Source: a virus (taxonomy: Duplodnaviria > Caudoviricetes). Taken from it: 41,307 nt of DNA. Under the pieces are notes generated by a model. That model saw nothing but the letters and a program-made list of their open reading frames with translations. It made no database searches and had not been told where the DNA came from. The stretch covers positions 1 to 41,307 of IMG/VR virus record IMGVR_UViG_3300010366_000007. One strand, 5' to 3'. The position numbers were made by a program, and so were the translations under genes. Numbering within the stretch: the stretch's first letter is position 1; every line of letters starts with the position of its first letter. Positions 679 through 41,307 of the stretch are shown here, piece after piece.

Positions 679-891
679 ATGAGCGAACAACCCTTCCAGT
701 TTCAGGTGGTGTACGTCGACCCTGGCGATGGGCTGATCGTGGGCATGGAGCCGAGCGGCGGCGCCGTCGGCAGCGCCCACAAGGTCGCGGTGCTGTTCGA
801 CCAGACCGAGTACGACACGCTGATGCGCACCGATCCCGCGTACCTCTCGAGCGACAAGAATCACGTATTGGGGGCGCCTGACCACTCATGA
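679..891 (+). CDS. Small hypothetical protein (possible fibre assembly factor)
   Basis: ATG at 679 after GGAGTAGAGAG; MSEQPFQFQVVYVD...; ATGA overlap with the next gene. Confidence 0.7.
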   Translation: MSEQPFQFQVVYVDPGDGLIVGMEPSGGAVGSAHKVAVLFDQTEYDTLMRTDPAYLSSDKNHVLGAPDHS

Positions 892-1073
892 CCGACTTCG
901 TGGTGGGCCCCGGCGTGGCCCAGGCGATCTCTGACAACAACGACGAGGCGCGCTCGGACGAGCGCTACATCATCATGGACGAGGGCAACCGCGTCAGTCT
1001 GACCTTTGCCCGCGACGCCGAGTACGTCTGGTACGAAAGGGACAATGCCGTAAAACGGTGCCCCTTTCGGTGA
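888..1073 (+). CDS. 61-aa protein; probable N-terminal module of a frameshifted endolysin
   Basis: Ends TGC CCC TTT CGG TGA; the +1 frame is open from 1054 into the peptidase ORF. Confidence 0.7.
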   Translation: MTDFVVGPGVAQAISDNNDEARSDERYIIMDEGNRVSLTFARDAEYVWYERDNAVKRCPFR

Positions 1074-1557
1074 TGACGAGGCACCCGCAGGCCCGCCACT
1101 CTACGATCCGTGGACGAGCATGCCTGGCCAACTGTACGACTGGACGTGCTCGGCGTGCAGTCTGGAGTGGGTCAAGCGCGCTACCGGGCTGATCACCGCG
1201 AGCGACATCTACACCAGCCGTGAGTCGACGGTGTACGAGATCGGCTACCCGCAGAACATCAACCCGCAGTACGGACTGATGAACGCCGACGGGTCAGCGC
1301 TGCGCGCGGTCTTGCAGACGTACGGCGTCAGTACTGACCAGGGCTGGCTGGACTTCGACACGACCTACGCGCTGGCCCAGGACGGCACGGGCATGATGTC
1401 GGGCGCCGCCTGGTACCACTGGGTGTCGATCAGGGGGGTGCAGGGCAACACCTTGTGGGTGGCCAATAGCGCGCCGGGTTACAAGGGCATCTGGGACAAC
1501 GTCAGTCGTGATGACTTCGCCCGACTCGGCGGCTTCTCCGTCGTCTGGCTCGTCTGA
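1069..1557 (+). CDS. Papain-fold C39-like cysteine peptidase, putative endolysin catalytic domain (ATG at 1120, or reached by +1 frameshift)
   Basis: Q-x5-C (QLYDWTCSACS), WYHWVSIRG His, VANSAPG; lies between tail genes and a holin-like gene. Confidence 0.7.
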   Translation, partial: GDDEAPAGPPLYDPWTSMPGQLYDWTCSACSLEWVKRATGLITASDIYTSRESTVYEIGYPQNINPQYGLMNADGSALRAVLQTYGVSTDQGWLDFDTTYALAQDGTGMMSGAAWYHWVSIRGVQGNTLWVANSAPGYKGIWDNVSRDDFARLGGFSVVWLV

Positions 1558-1573: not shown

Positions 1574-1750
1574 ATGACGGTGAACGTCACGCTCAGTGTC
1601 GGCTATAGCCGCAAGCGCCCGTCCACCACGGATCGTCTGGAGCAACGCATGGACGCGGCGGGGCTGTTCCTAGCTGGCGCAGCGGTGGTGGTCATCATCC
1701 TAGTCTGGCTCTTGCCCAAAGTGTTCGCCTGGGTCGCGAGCGTCATCTAG
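1574..1750 (+). CDS. Small membrane protein, possible holin
   Basis: Hydrophobic stretch AAGLFLAGAAVVVIILVWLLP; directly follows the lysin. Confidence 0.45.
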   Translation: MTVNVTLSVGYSRKRPSTTDRLEQRMDAAGLFLAGAAVVVIILVWLLPKVFAWVASVI

Positions 1751-6234: not shown

Positions 6235-7578
6235 CTACCCAGAGGCAGCTTCACCCAGGGCCGTCCCCAGCAGGGCATCCACCGCATCGTCCACGCGGCT
6301 GTACAGGCGCGTCTCGTGGGCGCCAGTGATGTGCCCGTAGACGCTCTCGGTCACGTTGGTGCTGGAATGCCGCAGCACCTTGCTGACCTCCCAGAGGCTC
6401 ATGCCGGCCTCGATGCCCAGCGTGGCGTAGTCGTGGCGCAGCATGTGGAGGGTCTTGTCGGGCTGGCCCGCGCGGGCGGCGACCGACTTCCACCAGCGGT
6501 AGATCTCGTTGGGATCCATCGGCCCACCCGTGCGGGTCGGGAAGAGCCACGCCCAGGGCGACGTCGGCTCGGCGCCGGTCCACGTCCGCTGGTTGACCAG
6601 GGCGAAGGCAGCGGTGCGGGCCTTGTGCTCCTCCAGGAGCATCGCCCAGCGCTCCGGGTTCGAGAGCGGAATGGGCTTCTCCACGGAGTCATCCTGCATC
6701 TTGGAGCCCGAGCGCACCAGCACTCCCTGGCCCTTCAGTCGATTGGAGCGTCGGCGGATGTACAGCACGCCCTTGGCCAGATCGAAGTCTCCGAAGCGAA
6801 GCGCGGCGATCTCCTGGCGGCGCAGGCCCAGGCGGATGCCCAGGTGCATCACCAGTTCCAGCCGCTCGCCCTGGACGGCCGCGTACAGCGCCTGCACGCC
6901 CTCAGGCGTGGGCGCCTCCTTCTTCTCGGCGGTGGGCTTGCGCACGCGGTCGTCGTCCCCGAAGACGGTCACCGGGTTCATGCGCAGGGCGGTCACGTCG
7001 CGGCGCTTGATGGCGCGGGTGATGGCCCCGTTGAGCACCACGTAGGCCTTGTAGCGGCTGGGCATCCCGACGCCCGCGCGGGTCATGGCTTCCCACCAGA
7101 TCTCTACGTCGCCCACGGTCAGCTTGTCCAGGCGCTTGCCAGCGATGGCGCGCGAGAAGATGTGCCGGTCGCAGACCCAGCGGTAGTTCTCGTGGGTGGT
7201 AGGTTGCTTGCCGCCCTCACGCTCGCCCGCCGCGTTGTAGGTGGGCTTCACCTCGTGCTCGAGCCAGTACTCGATCCACTCGCCCACGGTCGGGTTGCTG
7301 GGCAGGGCGGCCAGCTGCTCGGCCACGCCTTCGGTGATGCGCCCCGAGGCCACGTCGCGCTTCCACTCTTCGAGCTTGTCCAGGGCTTCCTTCTGGGTCT
7401 TGCCGTAGACGGTCTTGGGGCTCTGACCAGGGCGCGGCCAGGTTGCGATGTACAGCTGGCGCTTGGCGTCGAAGCGGACCCCGCCCGTGCCCCGCTCGCG
7501 GCGGGGCTTCTTGGCGGAAGCCTGATCCAGAATCTCGGCGGCGACGATCTCGACTGAGCTAGTCTTGCGATTGGACAT
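6235..7578 (-). CDS. int: Tyrosine integrase
   Basis: N-terminal arm-binding domain (RRERGTGGV...VYGKTQKEA), SAM-like domain, catalytic GLRRQE, HMLRH, LRHSS, VYGH. Confidence 0.95.
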   Translation of the reverse strand: MSNRKTSSVEIVAAEILDQASAKKPRRERGTGGVRFDAKRQLYIATWPRPGQSPKTVYGKTQKEALDKLEEWKRDVASGRITEGVAEQLAALPSNPTVGEWIEYWLEHEVKPTYNAAGEREGGKQPTTHENYRWVCDRHIFSRAIAGKRLDKLTVGDVEIWWEAMTRAGVGMPSRYKAYVVLNGAITRAIKRRDVTALRMNPVTVFGDDDRVRKPTAEKKEAPTPEGVQALYAAVQGERLELVMHLGIRLGLRRQEIAALRFGDFDLAKGVLYIRRRSNRLKGQGVLVRSGSKMQDDSVEKPIPLSNPERWAMLLEEHKARTAAFALVNQRTWTGAEPTSPWAWLFPTRTGGPMDPNEIYRWWKSVAARAGQPDKTLHMLRHDYATLGIEAGMSLWEVSKVLRHSSTNVTESVYGHITGAHETRLYSRVDDAVDALLGTALGEAASG

Positions 7579-7605
7579 TCCGAAACCTCATCTTTCGGGT
7601 GTTCT

Positions 7606-7644
7606 GGCGTCCCGCGAGGTTCCAGTCTCGTGGGCGCCTTTTTT
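7606..7644 (+). terminator. Intrinsic terminator-like hairpin plus T6, antisense to int
   Basis: GGCGTCCCGCGAG...CTCGTGGGCGCC followed by TTTTTT. Confidence 0.55.
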
Positions 7645-7675
7645 GGTTGTACCGCGCAGGTGTGGCGGGGACAAG

Positions 7676-7704
7676 ACTGTAGCCAGCCTTACAGGCATGT
7701 GCAA
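7676..7704 (-). promoter_or_regulatory. Sigma70-type promoter for int
   Basis: Minus strand TTGCAC-17 bp-TACAGT. Confidence 0.55.
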
Positions 7705-7739
7705 CAAAAGAAGAGGGGGGCGGCGCGGGCGCCCCGTGC

Positions 7740-8174
7740 TCAGTCGGGCTCGACGGCGTTCAGGAGCAGCGGCAGCCCATCGAGGTGGGCGCGGGCTACG
7801 GCATACGCGGCCGACCAGGCATCTTCGGGAATGCTCTCCAGGATGCGCGTGTAGCGTCGCTTGAGCACGCGGATTTCCTGCTCATGCGGGTGAGACGGAT
7901 ACGTGGGGACCTCATCGACCAAGGGTAAGTACCCCGCCAGCCTGAACACCTCAACCGCGTCCAGGTCGAATACCTCAGCGATCTGAACGCAGGTCTGGGG
8001 CAGAGGAACAACACGCTTGCACTCAACCAGGGTCAGCCATCGGGACACGACCCCCAGCTTTACCCCGAGGATGTCCGCTAGCTGAGTGGACGACCAGTTA
8101 CGCGCGGTCATCGCCTCGCGAATTGTGACGTGCAGCTGCGACTGCACGCGCCGCTTCGACTCCGTACTACTCAC
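7740..8174 (-). CDS. XRE/CI-like repressor
   Basis: HTH (WSSTQLADILGVKLGVVSRWL...EVFRLAGYL); GGGGAGG SD before GTG at 8174; divergent from the early operon. Confidence 0.75.
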   Translation of the reverse strand: MSSTESKRRVQSQLHVTIREAMTARNWSSTQLADILGVKLGVVSRWLTLVECKRVVPLPQTCVQIAEVFDLDAVEVFRLAGYLPLVDEVPTYPSHPHEQEIRVLKRRYTRILESIPEDAWSAAYAVARAHLDGLPLLLNAVEPD

Positions 8175-8287
8175 GCAGGGCCTCCCCAAGGCTAACGACT
8201 TGAGGCCGACCTGTGAAGCGCCGAGCGTATCAACAACCCGTGAGAATGCCGCCGGCATTACGCCACTTGCACCCGTGTGCTACCCCC

Positions 8288-8345
8288 TTCACAGAATCGT
8301 AAGGTAGGTTTTACCATGCTGGACTTCCTGATGTGCAGGAGTCAA
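8288..8345. promoter_or_regulatory. Immunity control region with overlapping divergent promoter candidates and a palindrome
   Basis: Plus strand TTCACA-18-TACCAT (8288-8317); minus strand TTGACT-18-CAGCAT (8345-8316); imperfect palindrome GACTTCCTG..CAGGAGTC at 8322-8343. Confidence 0.4.
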
Positions 8346-8403
8346 CCACACTAGCAAGCGGCAGGTCAGAAATAGGCGAGTAGTGCCGGCAATCCTGACC
8401 TGA

Positions 8404-8967
8404 ATGGAGGGCACCGTGGTGGGTGATCAAGCGGCAGAGAACTGGTGGGGCAACCGCGCGGCGGCGATGGAATGGGCACGCGAAGCGCGGGCGCGGGCAG
8501 CTGCTCAACGTGCTGCGCTGCATGCCTCGCGTCACAATTTGGAAAACGTGGCCCCAGCGCCCCCTGCGGTCACGGATGAGCCCCCGCCTAGCCCGCCTGA
8601 TCCCCCATCGTCACCCATCGTCAATTCCCAGGTTGAGCCCTGCTTAACGACGCGGAAAGCTGGCGGACGCCATGCAAACGACAAGGCAAAGCAGGGCGGA
8701 ACGCAGCCCATGAGCGTCGCGGTGGAAAAGATGGCCCAGTCGCAACCCGACAAGCCCTTGCTGGACCCGGAGGAGGAAGCCGCCTACCTGGGTATCAGCC
8801 GCTCCACGTTGGACCGCTGGTCGAAGACGCCAGGCTTTCCGGTGCTCCGCTCCGGGCACGTGGTGAAGTTTCCCTGGAAGACGGTGGACGAGTTCCTGGA
8901 ACGCGCCTCGCGCGAGGGCATCGTGCTGTACTCCAGGTCCAGTACGCCCAGGAAGAGGCGCAAGTGA
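8404..8967 (+). CDS. Excisionase/HTH_17-like DNA-binding protein (true start may be 8710)
   Basis: LLDPEEEAAYLGISRSTLDRW....FP....G..VKF winged-helix pattern at the C-terminus. Confidence 0.7.
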   Translation: MEGTVVGDQAAENWWGNRAAAMEWAREARARAAAQRAALHASRHNLENVAPAPPAVTDEPPPSPPDPPSSPIVNSQVEPCLTTRKAGGRHANDKAKQGGTQPMSVAVEKMAQSQPDKPLLDPEEEAAYLGISRSTLDRWSKTPGFPVLRSGHVVKFPWKTVDEFLERASREGIVLYSRSSTPRKRRK

Positions 8968-24375: not shown

Positions 24376-27300
24376 ATGCCCGGACTTCCCGACGTCGACC
24401 AGACTAGCTGGGACGACTTCTCGGCTAATCGGTGGTTTCAGCAGACCTCCGATCAGATCAACAGCTTGAGCCAGATGCCGCTGGCGCCAGGGCTGGGGTT
24501 CCTTTCCAACTCGTCAGCGATGATCAATTCGCTGCAGATCCCGACCCCGCCGCCGATCCAGCCGCCGGCGATGCCGCAGATACCCCAGATCACGCTGCCG
24601 CCGCTGCCCACGCCCACGCCGGCCCCCGCGCCAGCGCCGCCGCAACCACCAGCACCGCAGCCAGCACCGGCGGCTCCCATGCTGCCACCCCTCGGGCTGC
24701 CTCCGTCGCCAGCACCGCTCCCTCCCGAGCAAGCCCCGGCGCCGGAGGCAGCACCCGCCGGCCCGGTGCCGATGGTGCCCACGGTTCCGACGTTGCCGAC
24801 CGTGCCCACGGTGCAGATTCCAGACCAGACCCAACCGTCGATCTTCGCCCCGACGCAGCCCAAGCCGCCGGCGCAGAGTCCGTTCGGCGGCGAGGCCAAC
24901 GGCCCGTTCGCGCCGACCACGCCGGCTATCACGCCTCCCGCGACACCTAACCTGTCGCAACCGGCGCCGGCCAATTTCGATCCCAACGCGCCGGCGATGC
25001 GGGCAGTGAATGCTGCCCCAGCTGGCGATCTCCAGAACTACGCGCGTCAGGCCGCCCAGCGCGCGGGCATCAATCCCGAGATCTTTGCGGCTCAGATCCA
25101 GCAGGAGTCGGGGTTCAACCCCAACGCTGGCTCGTCGGCGGGCGCCCAGGGCATCGCCCAGATCGTGCCCCAGTACCACCCTGGCGTGAATCCGCTGGAT
25201 CCCAGGGCCGCGCTGGATTACGCAGCGAACCTCGACCGCAAGCTGTTGGACCAGTACGGGGGCGATTGGCAAAAAGCGCTGATTGCCTACAACGGTGGTG
25301 GTGGCGCGGTAGCCGCGTGGGACCGTGGCGAGCCGTACGGCGAGTCGCAGACCTACGTCTCGCAGATTCTGGGTACGAGCCGCCCTAATCAGAATGCTGG
25401 CCAGTCGGCCCAACAAGCTCCGAGTGGACTGACCACCGGCCCAGCCGACGACGCGGGCCGCATCTTTCCACTCACGGTCAAGCCCACCAACGCACCGTCT
25501 GCCACGTATCACTCGCAGGGAGGCTCGGACCTGATGGCGCCGCGCGGCACGCCCGTGGCGGCGATGCAGAGCGGCAAGGTGGTGGAGGTTTTCCAGGACA
25601 AGGGTGATCACCAGTTCGGCGGCAATGCCGTGTTGATCCACGGCAACGACGGACTGGATTACTACTACGCCCACTTTGACCAGCCGACGTCCCTTCACAT
25701 TGGCGATCAGGTCCAGGCTGGTCAGCAGATTGGTCTGGTGGGCAACTCCGGCAATGCCTACAAGGACGGCAAGGGCGAAACCCACCTCCACATCGGTATT
25801 GGCCACGGCATCTCGGACGGTGTGGGCTCTGAGGGCGGCCTGGGACTCGACTACAACGCCCAGTCCCTGCTGGCCGATCTGGAGAAGGGCGTGGGCGAGC
25901 AACCTGCCAGAACCACAGCCACGGCAGGTGCCCCGTCCGCACCAGCGCCCACGATTGCGGACCTAGACAACACGCAACGGGCGTTGAGTAACGGGCTGAC
26001 GAGTCGGCCAGCTGGGTCTGCCATCCCGCCGACGGACCAGATCCCGCGCCAGGCGATGACGCAGTTCGGCGTCCAGCAACCCAGTGTCACGCCTAGCGAG
26101 GACCAGAATCCCTGGTCGGACCTGGGCAACGTCATCAGCGGCGCCATCCAGCGCGCGGTGAGTGGCATCACCGGCGGTATGGGACCCCCAGGCCCGCCAG
26201 GTGGACCTCCAGGCGACCGCCGGCGCGAGGAAGACCAGCAGCGGCAGGACCAGTTCTCACCCGATACGGGTGATATCGGCACCAGCGACTTCCGCAACCT
26301 GAGCGCCGACCAGATCGACGCCCTGTTCCGCAACCCGGTCACGGGCGAGCCCGGTGCCATCCAGCAGGCCACTGGCTTGTACACCACCCCGCCCAGGGAC
26401 CTGAAGGAAGCCGCCGACCGAGCGTTGGCAGACATCCAGCGGCGCGGGATCCCACTGCCTGGCCCGGGCGGCTCGATCAGCTTCCTCCAGCCAGGCCGTA
26501 GCCTGCGCGAATTGAACCCGCTCAGCAAGGGGTCCGAGCCCACCGTCCTGGAAGACATCCTGTCTGGCGTGCCCGGCGTGCTGGGTGGGATTGCCCGCGC
26601 CGACGAGCAGGGCGGCACCATCATCAACCCGCTCCGCTCCGCTGCTGCCGGTGCGGCCGAGGGGGCCATCGACACCGCGAGGCTGAGCGCCGAAAACCTC
26701 GCCAAAGGCCTCGAGCGCAACCGGATCATGCAGGCCTGGGACTGGTTCGTCCGCAACTATTCCGACCGCAACGTCGACCTGAACCACGTCGCGGAAGACT
26801 TCGCCAGACGCCTGGGCCGACCGCTGACCGATGACGAGAACGCGCAGGTGCTCGCGCGCGTCGACCCCACCCACCAGTCGAACGTGGCCATCGAAAACGC
26901 ATTGGGCAGTGCCATGCGCGACGTGCCCAACAAGCTCCAGCAGACGCTCCAGGATTACATCCGCGACGAGACCGACAACTCCATCGGGGAGGGGCTGGCT
27001 AGCCGCGCCGAGAGCGCGTTCATGGACCAGGGCATCGACAAGGGCACCCAGCGCGCCATGGACGAGGCCAACCAGATGCTCCAGGACGCGCAGCAGGCCC
27101 ACGCCCAGGCACTGGCCGACCAGCGCGCGGTGGACCTGGGTGTGCATCGTACCGCGCAGTCCCAGCAGCTAAACTTCGCTGGCCAGCGGGTGCGCAACGC
27201 CGAGCAGGCCGTCTCCGACGCGGAGGAAGTTGCCAGGGACGCGGCAGCCCGCCACGCCCGCGAGCGGACGCTGAACGGCCCCCAGGGCGAACTGGTGCGG

Positions 27301-30297
27301 CGCCCCGAGCAGCGCGACCTGATCATCGCCCAGTCCGACGCGAAGCGAGCCAACGCAGCCTACTCGCGCCTGTTCGCGCGGAGTGACCGCATCCCGATCC
27401 AGCCGACCGGCACCAGCAACGCCGTCCGTGCCCAGTACGAGCGGCAGCTGGCCAGCATGGCGCGCCAGGTGGGCTACGCCGAGGACCGGGTGAGCCGCCT
27501 CCAGCAGGCGCTGGGCGAAAACGTCGCTAGTCGCGGCGCGGCCGTGGAAGGCCGTGCGGCTCAGGCGGCTCGGGCCGCGCAGGAAGCCTCGCGCGTAGCT
27601 CCGACGCCCGAGCTAGCTGCTGCCAGGGTGCGCCTGCGCTACGAGCAGGCCAACCTGGATCGTCTCCAGGCAGCCAAGGCGCGCGGCCAGCAAGGCCTGG
27701 TGGACGACCTCGCCCGCGCGTTCCAGAAGGTGCAGAAGGCTCAGCGTGACGTCACCCAGGCCGAGGCCGACCTGCCTGCGGCCGCCAAAGCCCAGGGCTG
27801 GGCACTCAAGACCGGGCGCCTGTACGGCGGACGGACCTGGGACGAGGTGCAGGCCAGCATGCAGCGCATGCAGGACCAGTTCAAGAACGATCCCGAGACG
27901 TGGGGCAAGTTCCAGAACGTCAAGTCTGCGCTCCAGGACTTCCGCAAGCAGATGCTCCAGGAAGACGTCGACTCTGGCTTGATCCCGCAGGAAGCAGCCG
28001 ACGGGATGATGGACACCTTCGACATGTGGACCCCCAGCCGCCAGCTGAAGTACCTGGCAGAGGAGGGGCCGGGCGGCTTGCCGCGCGGCAACAAGCTCAA
28101 CGTCAACTCCAACGGCTACAAGTCCTATACCGCCGAGGGTTCGAGCGGCGAACTCCAGAACCCCATCGACGCCTTCATCCAGTACGCCCAGAGTCACTAT
28201 GACCGTGTCGCCAAAAACGACGCTTTCAACGCGGTGGTTGACGCCCAGGGCGGACCCGGTGGAGCGCTGCGGCGCATTGCCGACAACATGCAGGAGTACA
28301 TCGACGCCAAGGGCGGCCTGCTCCACCCGGACTACAAGCCCAGGATTGGAGACGGCGAGCGCAAGCTGACGGGCTTTATCGACGGCAAGAAGCAGGAGTA
28401 CATCACCGACAACCCGGCCCTCCACGCGGCCATCGAGAACGTCCAGGCTGGCGACCACCCGATCATCAAGGTGCTACGTCCGCTGGCCCACCTGACACGA
28501 GAGACGGCCGTATCTCGCAACCCGCTCTGGTTGGCAGCCAACTCCCTGAGTGATGCATTCGGCTATGGCATGCGCACCACGAAAGCGAGCCCCAGCCAGC
28601 TGCTCAACCTGGGCCCAGCGGCACTCACCGCAGCGATGACGGATCCCAACGACCCCGAGCGGGAGGACAAGATCAAGGCTGCGCTGGTTGCGGGTGTCGG
28701 CTCGCGCGCGCTGATCGGCAATCGCCTGGGCCTGGGTCCGAGTGCCACGCGCGAGTTCATGCTGGCCTACGGTGATGTGCTGCGGGGCTTGGGCAGCGGA
28801 CGTATGACGGGCGAGGGTGTCCAGGAGTTGTGGCGGCGCGGTGGTGGCATGCGCGGCGGCGGCTACGCCGGCTATGGACCAAAGGCCGCCGAGGAGTACC
28901 TCCAGCAGCTGACCAAGAACCGCGCGTACAGCGTGCGCAATCTGAAGGATCTGCGCGATCTGTTCAACGACGCCATCCTGTTTGGCTGGAACAAAGCCCT
29001 GGGCGACCGCTTCGAGCAGGCGCCGCGCGTGGCGATGATGCGCCTGCGGGACCAGCAGGGCTTCTCTCCGCTGCGTTCGATGATTGCCGCCCGCGATGCG
29101 TCGATTGACTTCGACCGGGGCGGCAACTTTGTCCGTGCGCTCAACTCCGCTATCCCGTTCCTCAATGCCAGCGCCCAGGGCGGCGCCCAGCTGGGGCGTC
29201 TGGTGCGAGATGCCGGACCGGCGCTTGCCTTCGCGGGCACCAGCCTGGTCGGCATTCCCACCGCGCTGGCGGACATCTACAACTACTCGGATCCGCAGCG
29301 GGAGGACGACTACAACAACGTCCCCGACTACATCAAACGCCAGGGCCCGGTGTTGATGCGCCCAGGCGAAGCGCCGCGTGACGCCAACGGCAACCGCGTG
29401 CCGCAGTACCTCCAATTCAACACCCGTGAGTTCTCACCGTTTGCCATCGCCGCCCACGAGGCGGTCAAGCGTGCGCTGGGCAAGGGCACGCCGCGCAACG
29501 CTGCGCAGATCATGCAGGACATCGCCCTCCAGGAGCTTCCCGGCGGCCTGATGGGCAGTCCATCCGAGACACTGAGTTCGGTGTTGCCAGCTGGTTTCGG
29601 CACGGCCTACCAGCTATCCCAGAACCGCGACCTGTACCGTGACGCCAGCATCGCCAACCAGTACAGCGACGAGTCGGCCTCCAATGTGGGCAAGGCCCTG
29701 GCACCGCTGCTGGAGAACATCATCACCCAGGTACCGGGCCAGTCGGCCGACCGCATCCGTCCCTCGCAGGTCGACTTCGCCATCAAGGACGCCTTCAACG
29801 GGCTGGGTCAGACCGGCCTCAACATCACCGACCAGCTGACTGGGCGCGCGGCGCGCGTGCCGGGAGCGGCCAGCAACATCCCGCTGGTCGGCGGCGCGGT
29901 CGGCCGCTTTGTACGCGGTACTGGTGGCCAGAACTGGCAGGACGTGCAGGCCCCGGAGGCGATGCTGGCGCCCGACATCCGCCGCAACCTGCGCTCGCTG
30001 GGTGGGTCCACGGCCTACTACGAGCCGTCAGCGGTGCCGTCCACCTACCAGCGCGTGCCGCTGCGCCAGGCCGAGCAGGTCCAGTACCAGCGCCTGACCA
30101 ACCAGTATCTCGATCAGTACATGCGGCGGATGATGACGCGCAGCGGCTGGGACCGCAGCGACACGGTGCGGGAGAAGTTGATCTCGGCGGCGATGGACGC
30201 CGCGCGGAAGAAGGCCGGCGGCGAAGTGATCCGTCAGATTCGCGCGAGTGGCAGCAACCTGCACGAGCGCATGAAGCAGCAGTCATCGGCGCTCTGA
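24376..30297 (+). CDS. Large internal virion/ejection protein with SLT transglycosylase, M23 peptidase and LPD38-like C-terminus
   Basis: QESGFNPNA.SSAGAQGIAQ..AYNGG (SLT); H...SDL..YYAH..HLHIG (M23); IDFDRGG..LNSAIPFLNASAQG and VPDYIKR (LPD38-like). Confidence 0.85.
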   Translation: MPGLPDVDQTSWDDFSANRWFQQTSDQINSLSQMPLAPGLGFLSNSSAMINSLQIPTPPPIQPPAMPQIPQITLPPLPTPTPAPAPAPPQPPAPQPAPAAPMLPPLGLPPSPAPLPPEQAPAPEAAPAGPVPMVPTVPTLPTVPTVQIPDQTQPSIFAPTQPKPPAQSPFGGEANGPFAPTTPAITPPATPNLSQPAPANFDPNAPAMRAVNAAPAGDLQNYARQAAQRAGINPEIFAAQIQQESGFNPNAGSSAGAQGIAQIVPQYHPGVNPLDPRAALDYAANLDRKLLDQYGGDWQKALIAYNGGGGAVAAWDRGEPYGESQTYVSQILGTSRPNQNAGQSAQQAPSGLTTGPADDAGRIFPLTVKPTNAPSATYHSQGGSDLMAPRGTPVAAMQSGKVVEVFQDKGDHQFGGNAVLIHGNDGLDYYYAHFDQPTSLHIGDQVQAGQQIGLVGNSGNAYKDGKGETHLHIGIGHGISDGVGSEGGLGLDYNAQSLLADLEKGVGEQPARTTATAGAPSAPAPTIADLDNTQRALSNGLTSRPAGSAIPPTDQIPRQAMTQFGVQQPSVTPSEDQNPWSDLGNVISGAIQRAVSGITGGMGPPGPPGGPPGDRRREEDQQRQDQFSPDTGDIGTSDFRNLSADQIDALFRNPVTGEPGAIQQATGLYTTPPRDLKEAADRALADIQRRGIPLPGPGGSISFLQPGRSLRELNPLSKGSEPTVLEDILSGVPGVLGGIARADEQGGTIINPLRSAAAGAAEGAIDTARLSAENLAKGLERNRIMQAWDWFVRNYSDRNVDLNHVAEDFARRLGRPLTDDENAQVLARVDPTHQSNVAIENALGSAMRDVPNKLQQTLQDYIRDETDNSIGEGLASRAESAFMDQGIDKGTQRAMDEANQMLQDAQQAHAQALADQRAVDLGVHRTAQSQQLNFAGQRVRNAEQAVSDAEEVARDAAARHARERTLNGPQGELVRRPEQRDLIIAQSDAKRANAAYSRLFARSDRIPIQPTGTSNAVRAQYERQLASMARQVGYAEDRVSRLQQALGENVASRGAAVEGRAAQAARAAQEASRVAPTPELAAARVRLRYEQANLDRLQAAKARGQQGLVDDLARAFQKVQKAQRDVTQAEADLPAAAKAQGWALKTGRLYGGRTWDEVQASMQRMQDQFKNDPETWGKFQNVKSALQDFRKQMLQEDVDSGLIPQEAADGMMDTFDMWTPSRQLKYLAEEGPGGLPRGNKLNVNSNGYKSYTAEGSSGELQNPIDAFIQYAQSHYDRVAKNDAFNAVVDAQGGPGGALRRIADNMQEYIDAKGGLLHPDYKPRIGDGERKLTGFIDGKKQEYITDNPALHAAIENVQAGDHPIIKVLRPLAHLTRETAVSRNPLWLAANSLSDAFGYGMRTTKASPSQLLNLGPAALTAAMTDPNDPEREDKIKAALVAGVGSRALIGNRLGLGPSATREFMLAYGDVLRGLGSGRMTGEGVQELWRRGGGMRGGGYAGYGPKAAEEYLQQLTKNRAYSVRNLKDLRDLFNDAILFGWNKALGDRFEQAPRVAMMRLRDQQGFSPLRSMIAARDASIDFDRGGNFVRALNSAIPFLNASAQGGAQLGRLVRDAGPALAFAGTSLVGIPTALADIYNYSDPQREDDYNNVPDYIKRQGPVLMRPGEAPRDANGNRVPQYLQFNTREFSPFAIAAHEAVKRALGKGTPRNAAQIMQDIALQELPGGLMGSPSETLSSVLPAGFGTAYQLSQNRDLYRDASIANQYSDESASNVGKALAPLLENIITQVPGQSADRIRPSQVDFAIKDAFNGLGQTGLNITDQLTGRAARVPGAASNIPLVGGAVGRFVRGTGGQNWQDVQAPEAMLAPDIRRNLRSLGGSTAYYEPSAVPSTYQRVPLRQAEQVQYQRLTNQYLDQYMRRMMTRSGWDRSDTVREKLISAAMDAARKKAGGEVIRQIRASGSNLHERMKQQSSAL

Positions 30298-40398: not shown

Positions 40399-41307
40399 AT
40401 GAGCGGTAGTACGACAGAACTGAACCTGAGCACGGCGGTCGACGCGGACGACAACGCCGACTACTTGACGATCAATCTGGCCAACAGCCTGCGCACGCTG
40501 GACGGGCTCTTCAACAACGTCACCGGGCACACCCACGGCGGGGCGCACCAGGGCGGCCCGGTCTCGCCAGCAGCGGGCAGCATCCCGGGTACGGCGATTA
40601 CGGACGGCACCGTCACCAACGCCAAACTTGCGAGCGACGTCGGGCGGGCCTCGTTACTAACGAACGGGGGCTTCGAGATCTGGCAGCGCGGCAATGGACC
40701 GTTCACGGGAGCCGTTGCAGGAGCCTGGACGGCTGACCGTTGGAATGCCGTAACCGTTGGCACTGATGCGCTTTCAGTCAGTCGCGATACGACGAATGTC
40801 GATAATAGCCTGGCATGCGCGGCTTGCACATTCACGCTCGGGACCGGTGGCGGCAATACCAGCCTGGTCCAGGCGTTTGCGCGAGCAGGGGAGGGACTGG
40901 AGCAACTCAAGAATAAGACTGTCAGTGTGTCGGTTCGGGTGCGGACCTCGACGGCAAACGCTGTCAAAGTGGTGCTGTTTGGTACTGGCGGGTCGTCGCA
41001 AAGTAGCACGAACCATAGCGGCAGCGGCACGTATGAAACATTGACTGCAACCCTGGCAGTTGGCGCCTCAGCGACGGACGTTCGCGTGGGAATCTATTTC
41101 GCGGCATCCTGTACCGCCTACGTCGACAACGCCAATCTGGTGGTCGGCTCGCAGCCAGCCGATTACGTGCCGCTGCACCCGGCGGACGACCTCGCGCGGT
41201 GCCTGCGGTATTACGAGTTGATCGGTGAGGGTGTTGGATCTGGATGGGTCATGGGCGGCACCGTCGCCACGGCCGCGAGCCAAGCAATCTGGCTGACCGT
41301 CCCTTAC
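40399..41307 (+). CDS. Tail fibre/receptor-binding protein, N-terminal part (continues at 1-315)
   Basis: AGGAGGT SD, ATG at 40399; GHTHGG, LLTNGGFEIWQRG..ADRW carbohydrate-binding-like domain, DLARCLRYY; no stop before the window end. Confidence 0.8.
   Translation, partial: MSGSTTELNLSTAVDADDNADYLTINLANSLRTLDGLFNNVTGHTHGGAHQGGPVSPAAGSIPGTAITDGTVTNAKLASDVGRASLLTNGGFEIWQRGNGPFTGAVAGAWTADRWNAVTVGTDALSVSRDTTNVDNSLACAACTFTLGTGGGNTSLVQAFARAGEGLEQLKNKTVSVSVRVRTSTANAVKVVLFGTGGSSQSSTNHSGSGTYETLTATLAVGASATDVRVGIYFAASCTAYVDNANLVVGSQPADYVPLHPADDLARCLRYYELIGEGVGSGWVMGGTVATAASQAIWLTVPY
41185..41307. repeat. Terminal direct repeat, right copy
   Basis: Identical to 1-123. Confidence 0.95.

Follow-up and report, generated by a model that had tools for sequence, protein, structure and literature searches.

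Can one phage gene supply both a free small domain and an enzyme that carries this same domain, when the two coding regions lie in different reading frames? The question is raised by a locus in the window, the stretch of 41,307 nucleotides analyzed here, which represents a complete 41.3-kb genome of a soil phage with direct terminal repeats at its ends. A short open reading frame (ORF A) terminates there inside a second, overlapping frame that leads into a peptidase-like domain (domain B). We propose, with a probability of roughly 0.78 for the explanation as a whole, that this is an endolysin gene from which two proteins would be made by a programmed +1 shift of the ribosome. The features concerned are listed in Table 1.

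Table 1. Features of the putative frameshifted endolysin locus (positions in the window)
Feature	Positions	Strand	Remarks
ORF A, small-domain short product, 61 aa	888..1073	+	Helix and 4-strand sheet, model pLDDT 94.7
Shift cassette CCC TTT CGG TGA	1062..1073	+	Core TTT-C at 1065-1068; CGG in A site; stop one codon on
Acidic/Pro linker	1069..1101	+	Read in the +1 frame past the predicted shift
Domain B, predicted papain/C39-fold cysteine peptidase	1102..1557	+	Conserved part from Tyr 1102, upstream of ATG 1120
Domain B residues Gln, Cys, His, Asn	1129, 1147, 1417, 1465	+	Invariant Q, C, H, N in 40 sequences
In-domain ATG, start chosen by gene callers	1120..1122	+	Improbable as main start
Candidate holin-like ORF, 58 aa, with a single hydrophobic stretch	1574..1750	+	Holin-like by hydrophobicity

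The preliminary description of this DNA had reported that ORF A ends in CCC TTT CGG TGA and that the +1 frame runs open through an acidic, proline-containing linker into a C39-like peptidase. Both statements are borne out: the +1 frame opens after a TAA at 1051-1053 and is free of stops from 1054 to 1557, and the modeled peptidase has a papain/C39 fold. A shift at Phe60 gives a computed product of 222 amino acids, in which domain B, counted from Tyr 1102, occupies 152. Calculated masses are 7.1 kDa for the short form, 24.7 kDa for the fusion and 16.0 kDa for a protein begun at ATG 1120. The ATG of ORF A overlaps the stop of the upstream ORF (ATGA, 888-891), and its Shine-Dalgarno (SD) pairing in the window is weak (-2.5 kcal/mol), as is that before the ATG at 1120 (-3.0 kcal/mol), which sits three codons 5' of Gln 1129. 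The locus closes the structural operon, a short way past a tail fibre gene. Another 20 late-region ORFs of the window were examined, and none carries TTT-Y within its last four codons.

Relatives were gathered by scans with B, with A and with an alignment of A, two of which contributed the best 80 of 102 and the best 80 of 184 matches, giving 211 loci in total. After two copies of the window had been dropped and the window itself added, 210 sequences were classified: 155 have B in the +1 frame relative to A and 29 in the -1 frame, 17 have A and B fused in frame, 4 have A without B, 3 are truncated, and 2 have B without A. When sequences sharing 95% DNA identity were merged, 127 representatives carrying A remained (92 +1, 21 -1, 9 fused, 3 without B and 2 truncated). 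A later scan of 80 loci added 12 new representatives, all of which fit the pattern described below (7 +1 loci with TTT-Y, 4 -1 loci with T-TTY, and one amidase locus of the -1 type with T-TTC). No relatives were found among 50,697 phage records. In a quick tree of 112 of the 122 classified representatives (10 with a short B were dropped), the -1 loci are scattered among the +1 loci and the fused class needs at least three origins; the A and B halves may recombine, and the 8-11 changes that the tree gives for the -1 class are therefore not counts of origins. Some scanned loci stand apart. L039 and L040 have peptidase B without A, the former behind only a short Pro-rich leader and the latter with a different N-terminal segment joined to B in frame. 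L125 carries an A-like ORF that ends without Pro-Phe or a slip site, and none of the frames downstream of it encodes a partner.

The comparison of these loci carries most of the argument. In all 99 distinct +1 loci (92 representatives and 7 later ones), the same phenylalanine is written TTT and followed by a pyrimidine (TTT-Y), and a T precedes this TTT in only one of the 92 representatives. In all 25 distinct -1 loci (21 representatives and 4 later ones), the element is placed one base differently, as T-TTY. The nine fused representatives likewise have T-TTY and are joined in frame at the same junction. The register of the motif follows the phase of the two frames in 127 of 127 split loci, so that the register of TTTY, judged from sequence, predicts the direction of the frame break. 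A conserved site placed in accordance with the way the frame is broken suggests that the ribosome probably slips there on purpose.

The choice of codon is a property of the junction itself. TTT accounts for 99 of 567 other Phe codons of the same genes and for 24 of 75 at another Phe of A, against 92 of 92 at the junction, which indicates a synonymous constraint local to this point. Near-copy redundancy is not the reason for the conservation, since the +1 loci have a median amino acid identity of 61% over the last 31 residues of A. The Pro codon before the site is CCC in 85 of 88 +1 loci (218 of 856 elsewhere) and CCT in 15 of 15 -1 loci (126 of 856 elsewhere). Seven +1 loci without CCC still keep TTTY, from which we infer that tRNA-Phe is the slipping tRNA. 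The A-site codon in the 92 +1 loci is UGA in 48, CGG in 26, CGA in 7 and another codon starting with C in 11, and a stop follows the site by 1-4 codons in all 113 split loci. The slip signal had been described beforehand as UUU-CGN; a shift at UUU-C is supported, and the signal common to the family is wider, namely UUU-Y, with UUU-UGA in 48 of the 92 +1 loci. The analogy to influenza PA-X and the amalgaviruses drawn on that occasion can be dispensed with, as UUU-Y is already known as a +1-prone tetramer in bacteria, according to sections of PMC5009743.

The geometry of the loci is equally regular. The B frame is already open 5' of the Phe in 103 of 103 loci scored, and the distance from this Phe to the catalytic Cys is 22-33 codons across the 113 split loci. 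The natural fusions join A and B at the very residue predicted from the shift, with Pro-Phe-Gly-Asp at the junction point in L003 and L008, the same junction as that put forward in the preliminary description. Overlapping ORFs in a conserved phase, together with a site that permits re-pairing and is under synonymous constraint, are what characterizes programmed frameshifting, and programmed +1 frameshifting at UUU-C is on this basis very probable. The preliminary description had looked to homologues for a conserved site and phase or for in-frame fused versions, and both were found, with the -1 loci in addition. It had also named random phase or an indel in the reads as observations that would speak against a shift. 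The tracking of phase by register shows the former is not the case, and a contig from sequencing run X1 covers 957-1811 with 0 gaps; this run may be the source sample and hence is not independent, so that the comparative data carry the weight. An assembly or sequencing indel was rejected for the further reason that 155 of 210 sequences share the +1 phase, with locus L132 having the same junction. Among the sequencing runs listed as containing the sequence, none was of RNA.

According to the proposed mechanism, most ribosomes would terminate at 1071, and the small domain of 61 aa that they set free would be the more abundant product. A minority would pause with tRNA-Phe on UUU in front of a slowly decoded codon, CGG here and UGA in about half of the relatives. 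The tRNA would then re-pair from UUU to UUC (1065-1068), and reading would go on into the linker and the cysteine peptidase, giving the 222-aa protein composed of a binding domain and a peptidase. The CCC on the 5' side may assist or permit a tandem slip; the junction would be identical either way. No conserved internal SD stimulator was found, the SD-like pairing upstream being modest (median -3.45 kcal/mol), and no downstream hairpin was found in any class (median z of 0.44 for +1 and -0.27 for -1 loci, against mononucleotide shuffles). Since no stimulator was detected, shift efficiency may be low. A bare site with a slow codon or a stop is plausible, and its efficiency is probably modest.

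The frame might also be restored in some mRNAs by slippage of RNA polymerase on the C/T run, and most loci, whether +1, -1 or fused, do contain a CCCTTTY run. This is very improbable, because the runs contain only 3-5 T, the same run would have to be shortened in one class but lengthened in another, and which of the two is required depends on the codon register, which RNA polymerase should not be able to see.

A different possibility is that the locus consists of two separate genes, with the peptidase re-initiating at its own start and the junction conserved for some other reason. The window's ATG at 1120 does recur at the same position in 63 of 113 split loci, and separate initiation at this weak-SD codon is possible in part. 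Gln occupies that position in 48 of the 113 and Cys in 2, and the median SD pairing there is -3.0 kcal/mol, compared with -6.8 kcal/mol at the starts of A. Residues upstream of the Met position are also conserved (an aromatic residue in 111 of 113 and D/N in 109 of 113), and in 32 of 113 loci no ATG, GTG or TTG occurs in the B frame anywhere between a point ten codons 5' of the Phe and the catalytic Cys. These 32 loci and the fusions at the junction indicate that the downstream frame in general lacks independent initiation, and B would mostly be unable to start on its own; the ATG at 1120 had already been judged inadequate in the preliminary description. A coupled pair of genes is not without parallel, as a small LGFP-like ORF and an amidase are linked by a plain stop/start overlap in L214. 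As an account of the present family, two separate genes are hardly credible, given that the motif register tracks phase and that natural fusions exist.

The catalytic half can be assigned with some detail. The model of B (pLDDT 95.8) matches 36 chains at E<=0.001 in a fold search, with a best TM of about 0.66-0.68; among them are PeiR, a pseudomurein endoisopeptidase, and the C39 domains of both PCAT1 and ComA (E 2e-6 to 1e-4). This fold, combined with the Gln, the Cys, the His and a third polar residue, identifies the modeled B as a papain-like/C39-like cysteine peptidase, and its fold relatives include non-wall peptidases. None of 40 B members matches the Pfam Peptidase_C39, C39_2 or C70 HMMs, B has no Pfam or PHROG family match, and a PDB sequence search returned nothing meaningful.

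The small domain A is best understood through the company it keeps. A likeness to the LGFP repeat had been supposed ahead of the fold search. The LGFP-repeat domain of mycoloyltransferase A has a wall-binding role. In a wide fold search of 48,161 chains, the top two matches of A were 6swz and 6sx4, both Corynebacterium glutamicum mycoloyltransferase A, with middling Z scores of 6.5 and 5.6, the next, unrelated chain having Z 5.1; 55 of 60 residues of A align with the LGFP repeat at an rmsd of 2.3. The LGFP HMM (PF08310) matched A in 0 of 40 and 0 of 16 sequences, with 0 matches in the window's own genome. Foldseek with A found no significant match in PDB or BFVD, Atlas matches of A were under 0.9, and searches of Pfam, PHROG and PDB sequences with A gave nothing meaningful. 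The function of A is better shown by its domain partners than by the fold match. Longer homologues pair A with SLT, GH25, NlpC/P60, glucosaminidase and amidase domains, and in three loci (L048 3177-3707, L120 2168-2698 and L259 1671-2180) A leads into an Amidase_2 domain through the same C CCT TTC -1 site. L048 and L120 are two of the three representatives without B, L125 being the third. BLAST detects no similarity between the amidases of L259 and L048, so two types are represented. DNA loci for the GH25-type, SLT-type and C-terminal-A proteins were not found in the scans. A is thus an as yet unnamed module common to at least five kinds of wall hydrolase and a likely cell-wall-binding module, as far as its partners tell. 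One protein, P0052, was noticed to have two tandem copies of A, C-terminal to an unnamed domain. In the L214 locus mentioned above, the small ORF stands by itself at 1178-1408, encodes 76 aa behind a strong SD and matches LGFP weakly (Pfam E 0.011, below the cut-off), its only PDB match being 6swz (E 2). Its end shares a TGATG overlap with the start of the gene for an amidase, which is 62% identical to the one that L048 links by frameshift. When the profiles of A and this ORF were compared, no similarity emerged, and L214 is possibly a two-gene version of the layout of a small unit plus an enzyme.

The same partners bear on the role of the gene. A short hydrophobic ORF follows B in 74 of 101 loci, against 0 of 103 at the upstream position, which is a weak control as it lies inside genes; the 58-aa ORF of the window has no PHROG match. 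The amidase and other hydrolase partners, along with the hydrophobic ORF after B, point to a lysis cassette. The gene has the makeup of an endolysin, namely a modular hydrolase beside a gene that is holin-like by hydrophobicity, with a module common to known peptidoglycan hydrolases. It is quite probably the endolysin of this phage, a role that it had been given from the outset. The position behind the other structural genes, shortly past a tail fibre gene, would also suit a pair of virion proteins, consisting of an abundant surface module and a rarer, peptidase-extended copy in the style of Ig-like extensions, which use +1, -1 or in-frame decoding according to sections of PMC5009743. We regard this as improbable, because the partners of A are typical endolysin catalytic domains, the holin-like ORF comes next, and SLT and M23 domains are already present in the 1973-aa virion protein of this genome.

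The small domain would likely be wanted both free and fused. The shift may be real and serve only to keep the output of lysin low, the 61-aa protein being a harmless by-product that forms no complex. The lack of a detected stimulator fits this, as do the in-frame fused versions in nine representatives with at least three origins, and in two-isoform lysins the products need not associate, according to sections of PMC9430671. Against a by-product, the short product is the exact whole domain, and a weak start codon should be a cheaper throttle. Proteins with an internal or C-terminal A add to this: a Met lies within the 7 residues before the first conserved position of the domain in 17 of 32, compared with 69 of 847 background windows, and Met or Val in 29 of 32, counts made at the protein level only and on 32 proteins that are partly related. 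A Met in front of an internal or C-terminal A is the pattern of the internal starts treated in parts of PMC9430671. The fused loci also count against it. In all nine fused representatives C CCT TTY is retained and the -1 frame meets a stop 1-2 codons past it, whereas the +1 frame stays open for 30-177 codons, and these loci may produce the short form by a -1 shift. Two fused lineages keep the junction unchanged although about 44% of their conserved columns show synonymous variation and just 7 of 46 and 8 of 44 T-ending columns are uniform. The fused-locus pattern would arise equally well if a single base were lost on the 5' side of the site, and there are few origins. The free-standing small ORF of L214, coupled to an amidase, is a further indirect line of this kind, although it has no detectable similarity to A. 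With these points considered, a mere restriction of output appears unlikely, and the free small subunit is, on balance, probably useful.

By analogy with known two-polypeptide lysins, free copies of A may assemble with the fusion, and a putative multimer of short and long forms can be suggested tentatively. The preliminary description had proposed such a multimer, with a stoichiometry governed by recoding; the internal Met ahead of A in other lysins is an indirect point in its favor. A broader reading, also somewhat doubtful, is that of a widespread soil-phage lysin family whose multivalent enzyme would combine many free LGFP-like units with one catalytic fusion. Four interchanged decoding routes would lead to the same two products, one UUUY tetramer would serve both directions with the neighboring stop as sole stimulator, and the catalytic domain would be freely swapped. 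The routes, no firmer than the family picture itself, would reach the long form by a shift of either +1 or -1, the short form by a -1 shift where the gene is 'fused', and the free unit by starting internally where A is C-terminal.

Several known systems can be compared with the proposed one. Sections of PMC5009743 describe UUU_Ynn as +1-prone in bacteria, with the E. coli argI error and YopN-TyeA as examples. As at these sites and at CUU_UGA/UUU_U in prfB (PMC5009743), P-site tRNA-Phe would move from UUU to UUY, here with the A site occupied by a stop codon in 48 of 92 loci; unlike them, the present family showed no conserved internal SD, and the same tetramer also occurs in the -1 register within one family. 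The lambda gpG/gpGT pair and the capsid and tail shifts of Listeria phages PSA, A118 and A500 likewise give a short protein by default and a C-terminal extension by a shift near the stop. Those cases concern assembly chaperones and virion proteins and use CCC_U or -1 heptamers, whereas here the extension is a predicted cell-wall hydrolase and UUUY is invariant even in the 7 +1 loci without CCC. Ig-like extensions are, in the same sections, indifferent to the manner of decoding (PMC5009743). The resemblance of A to the mycoloyltransferase A repeats is tentative, with a middling Z of 6.5 for the fold of one repeat, and A differs from them in lacking an HMM match and in being a single unit rather than a tandem.

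The lysins CTP1L/CD27L, Lys170, LysIME-EF1 and LysP7951 also resemble the present case, since one gene likely gives the full lysin and a free non-catalytic domain, there through an internal in-frame start (sections of PMC9430671). The distant relatives with a C-terminal A show an internal Met in the same manner. In the window, the small domain is N-terminal and the short form ends at a stop, so an internal start cannot free A, and a frameshift with an adjacent stop would do so instead. The catalytic form would then be the recoded one, and association is putative; even in the known two-polypeptide lysins, the short and long forms do not always associate (PMC9430671). The main text of that source does not contain the words 'frameshift' and 'LGFP'.

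Literature searches on lysins and frameshifting, on two-polypeptide lysins and on LGFP showed no characterized endolysin built by a frameshift. A precedent is possible, as a passage of PMC10885494 names lysins among genes 'known to contain a frameshift' and cites a 1994 Lactococcus lysin paper (Shearman et al., PMC201772). Relevant passages of PMC3931495 report frameshifts for tail genes only, PMC8433972 touches on the subject only in the title of a reference, and gp1-lysA coupling appears as a speculative remark in a passage of PMC3111421. With this locus, the programmed frameshifting of tailed phages would reach beyond assembly and virion proteins into lysis, and a second route to two-polypeptide endolysins beside internal starts is suggested. 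More than 120 natural shift sites with one four-base motif, predicted to act in either direction by codon register, form a test set for slippage of P-site tRNA-Phe. Gene callers split such genes and truncate the peptidase, with the effect that lysins may be missed or cloned in clipped form.

The remainder of the genome gives some context. A tyrosine integrase with repressor-like and excisionase-like genes (window 6235-8967) indicates a temperate lifestyle, and no tRNA genes were found in the window. The best matches of terminase and integrase lean towards actinobacterial sequences, with an identity of only 26-42%; a single genome-collection match, a 39.7-kb contig in a metagenome bin, was considered as a clue to the host and rejected as host evidence. 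The 1973-aa virion-type protein (window 24376-30297) has SLT, M23 peptidase and LPD38 domains and, taken with the 842- and 708-aa ORFs of the same operon, suggests a short-tailed phage with ejection proteins. The tail fibre gene continues across the two ends of the sequence as a single frame of 407 codons (window 40399-41307 plus 1-315). Between it and the lysin lie two small ORFs of no assigned family, at 312-674 and 679-891, the first of which has a Cys-x2-Cys motif plus further Cys residues; sequence related to both is present in 4 of 4 sequencing runs examined.
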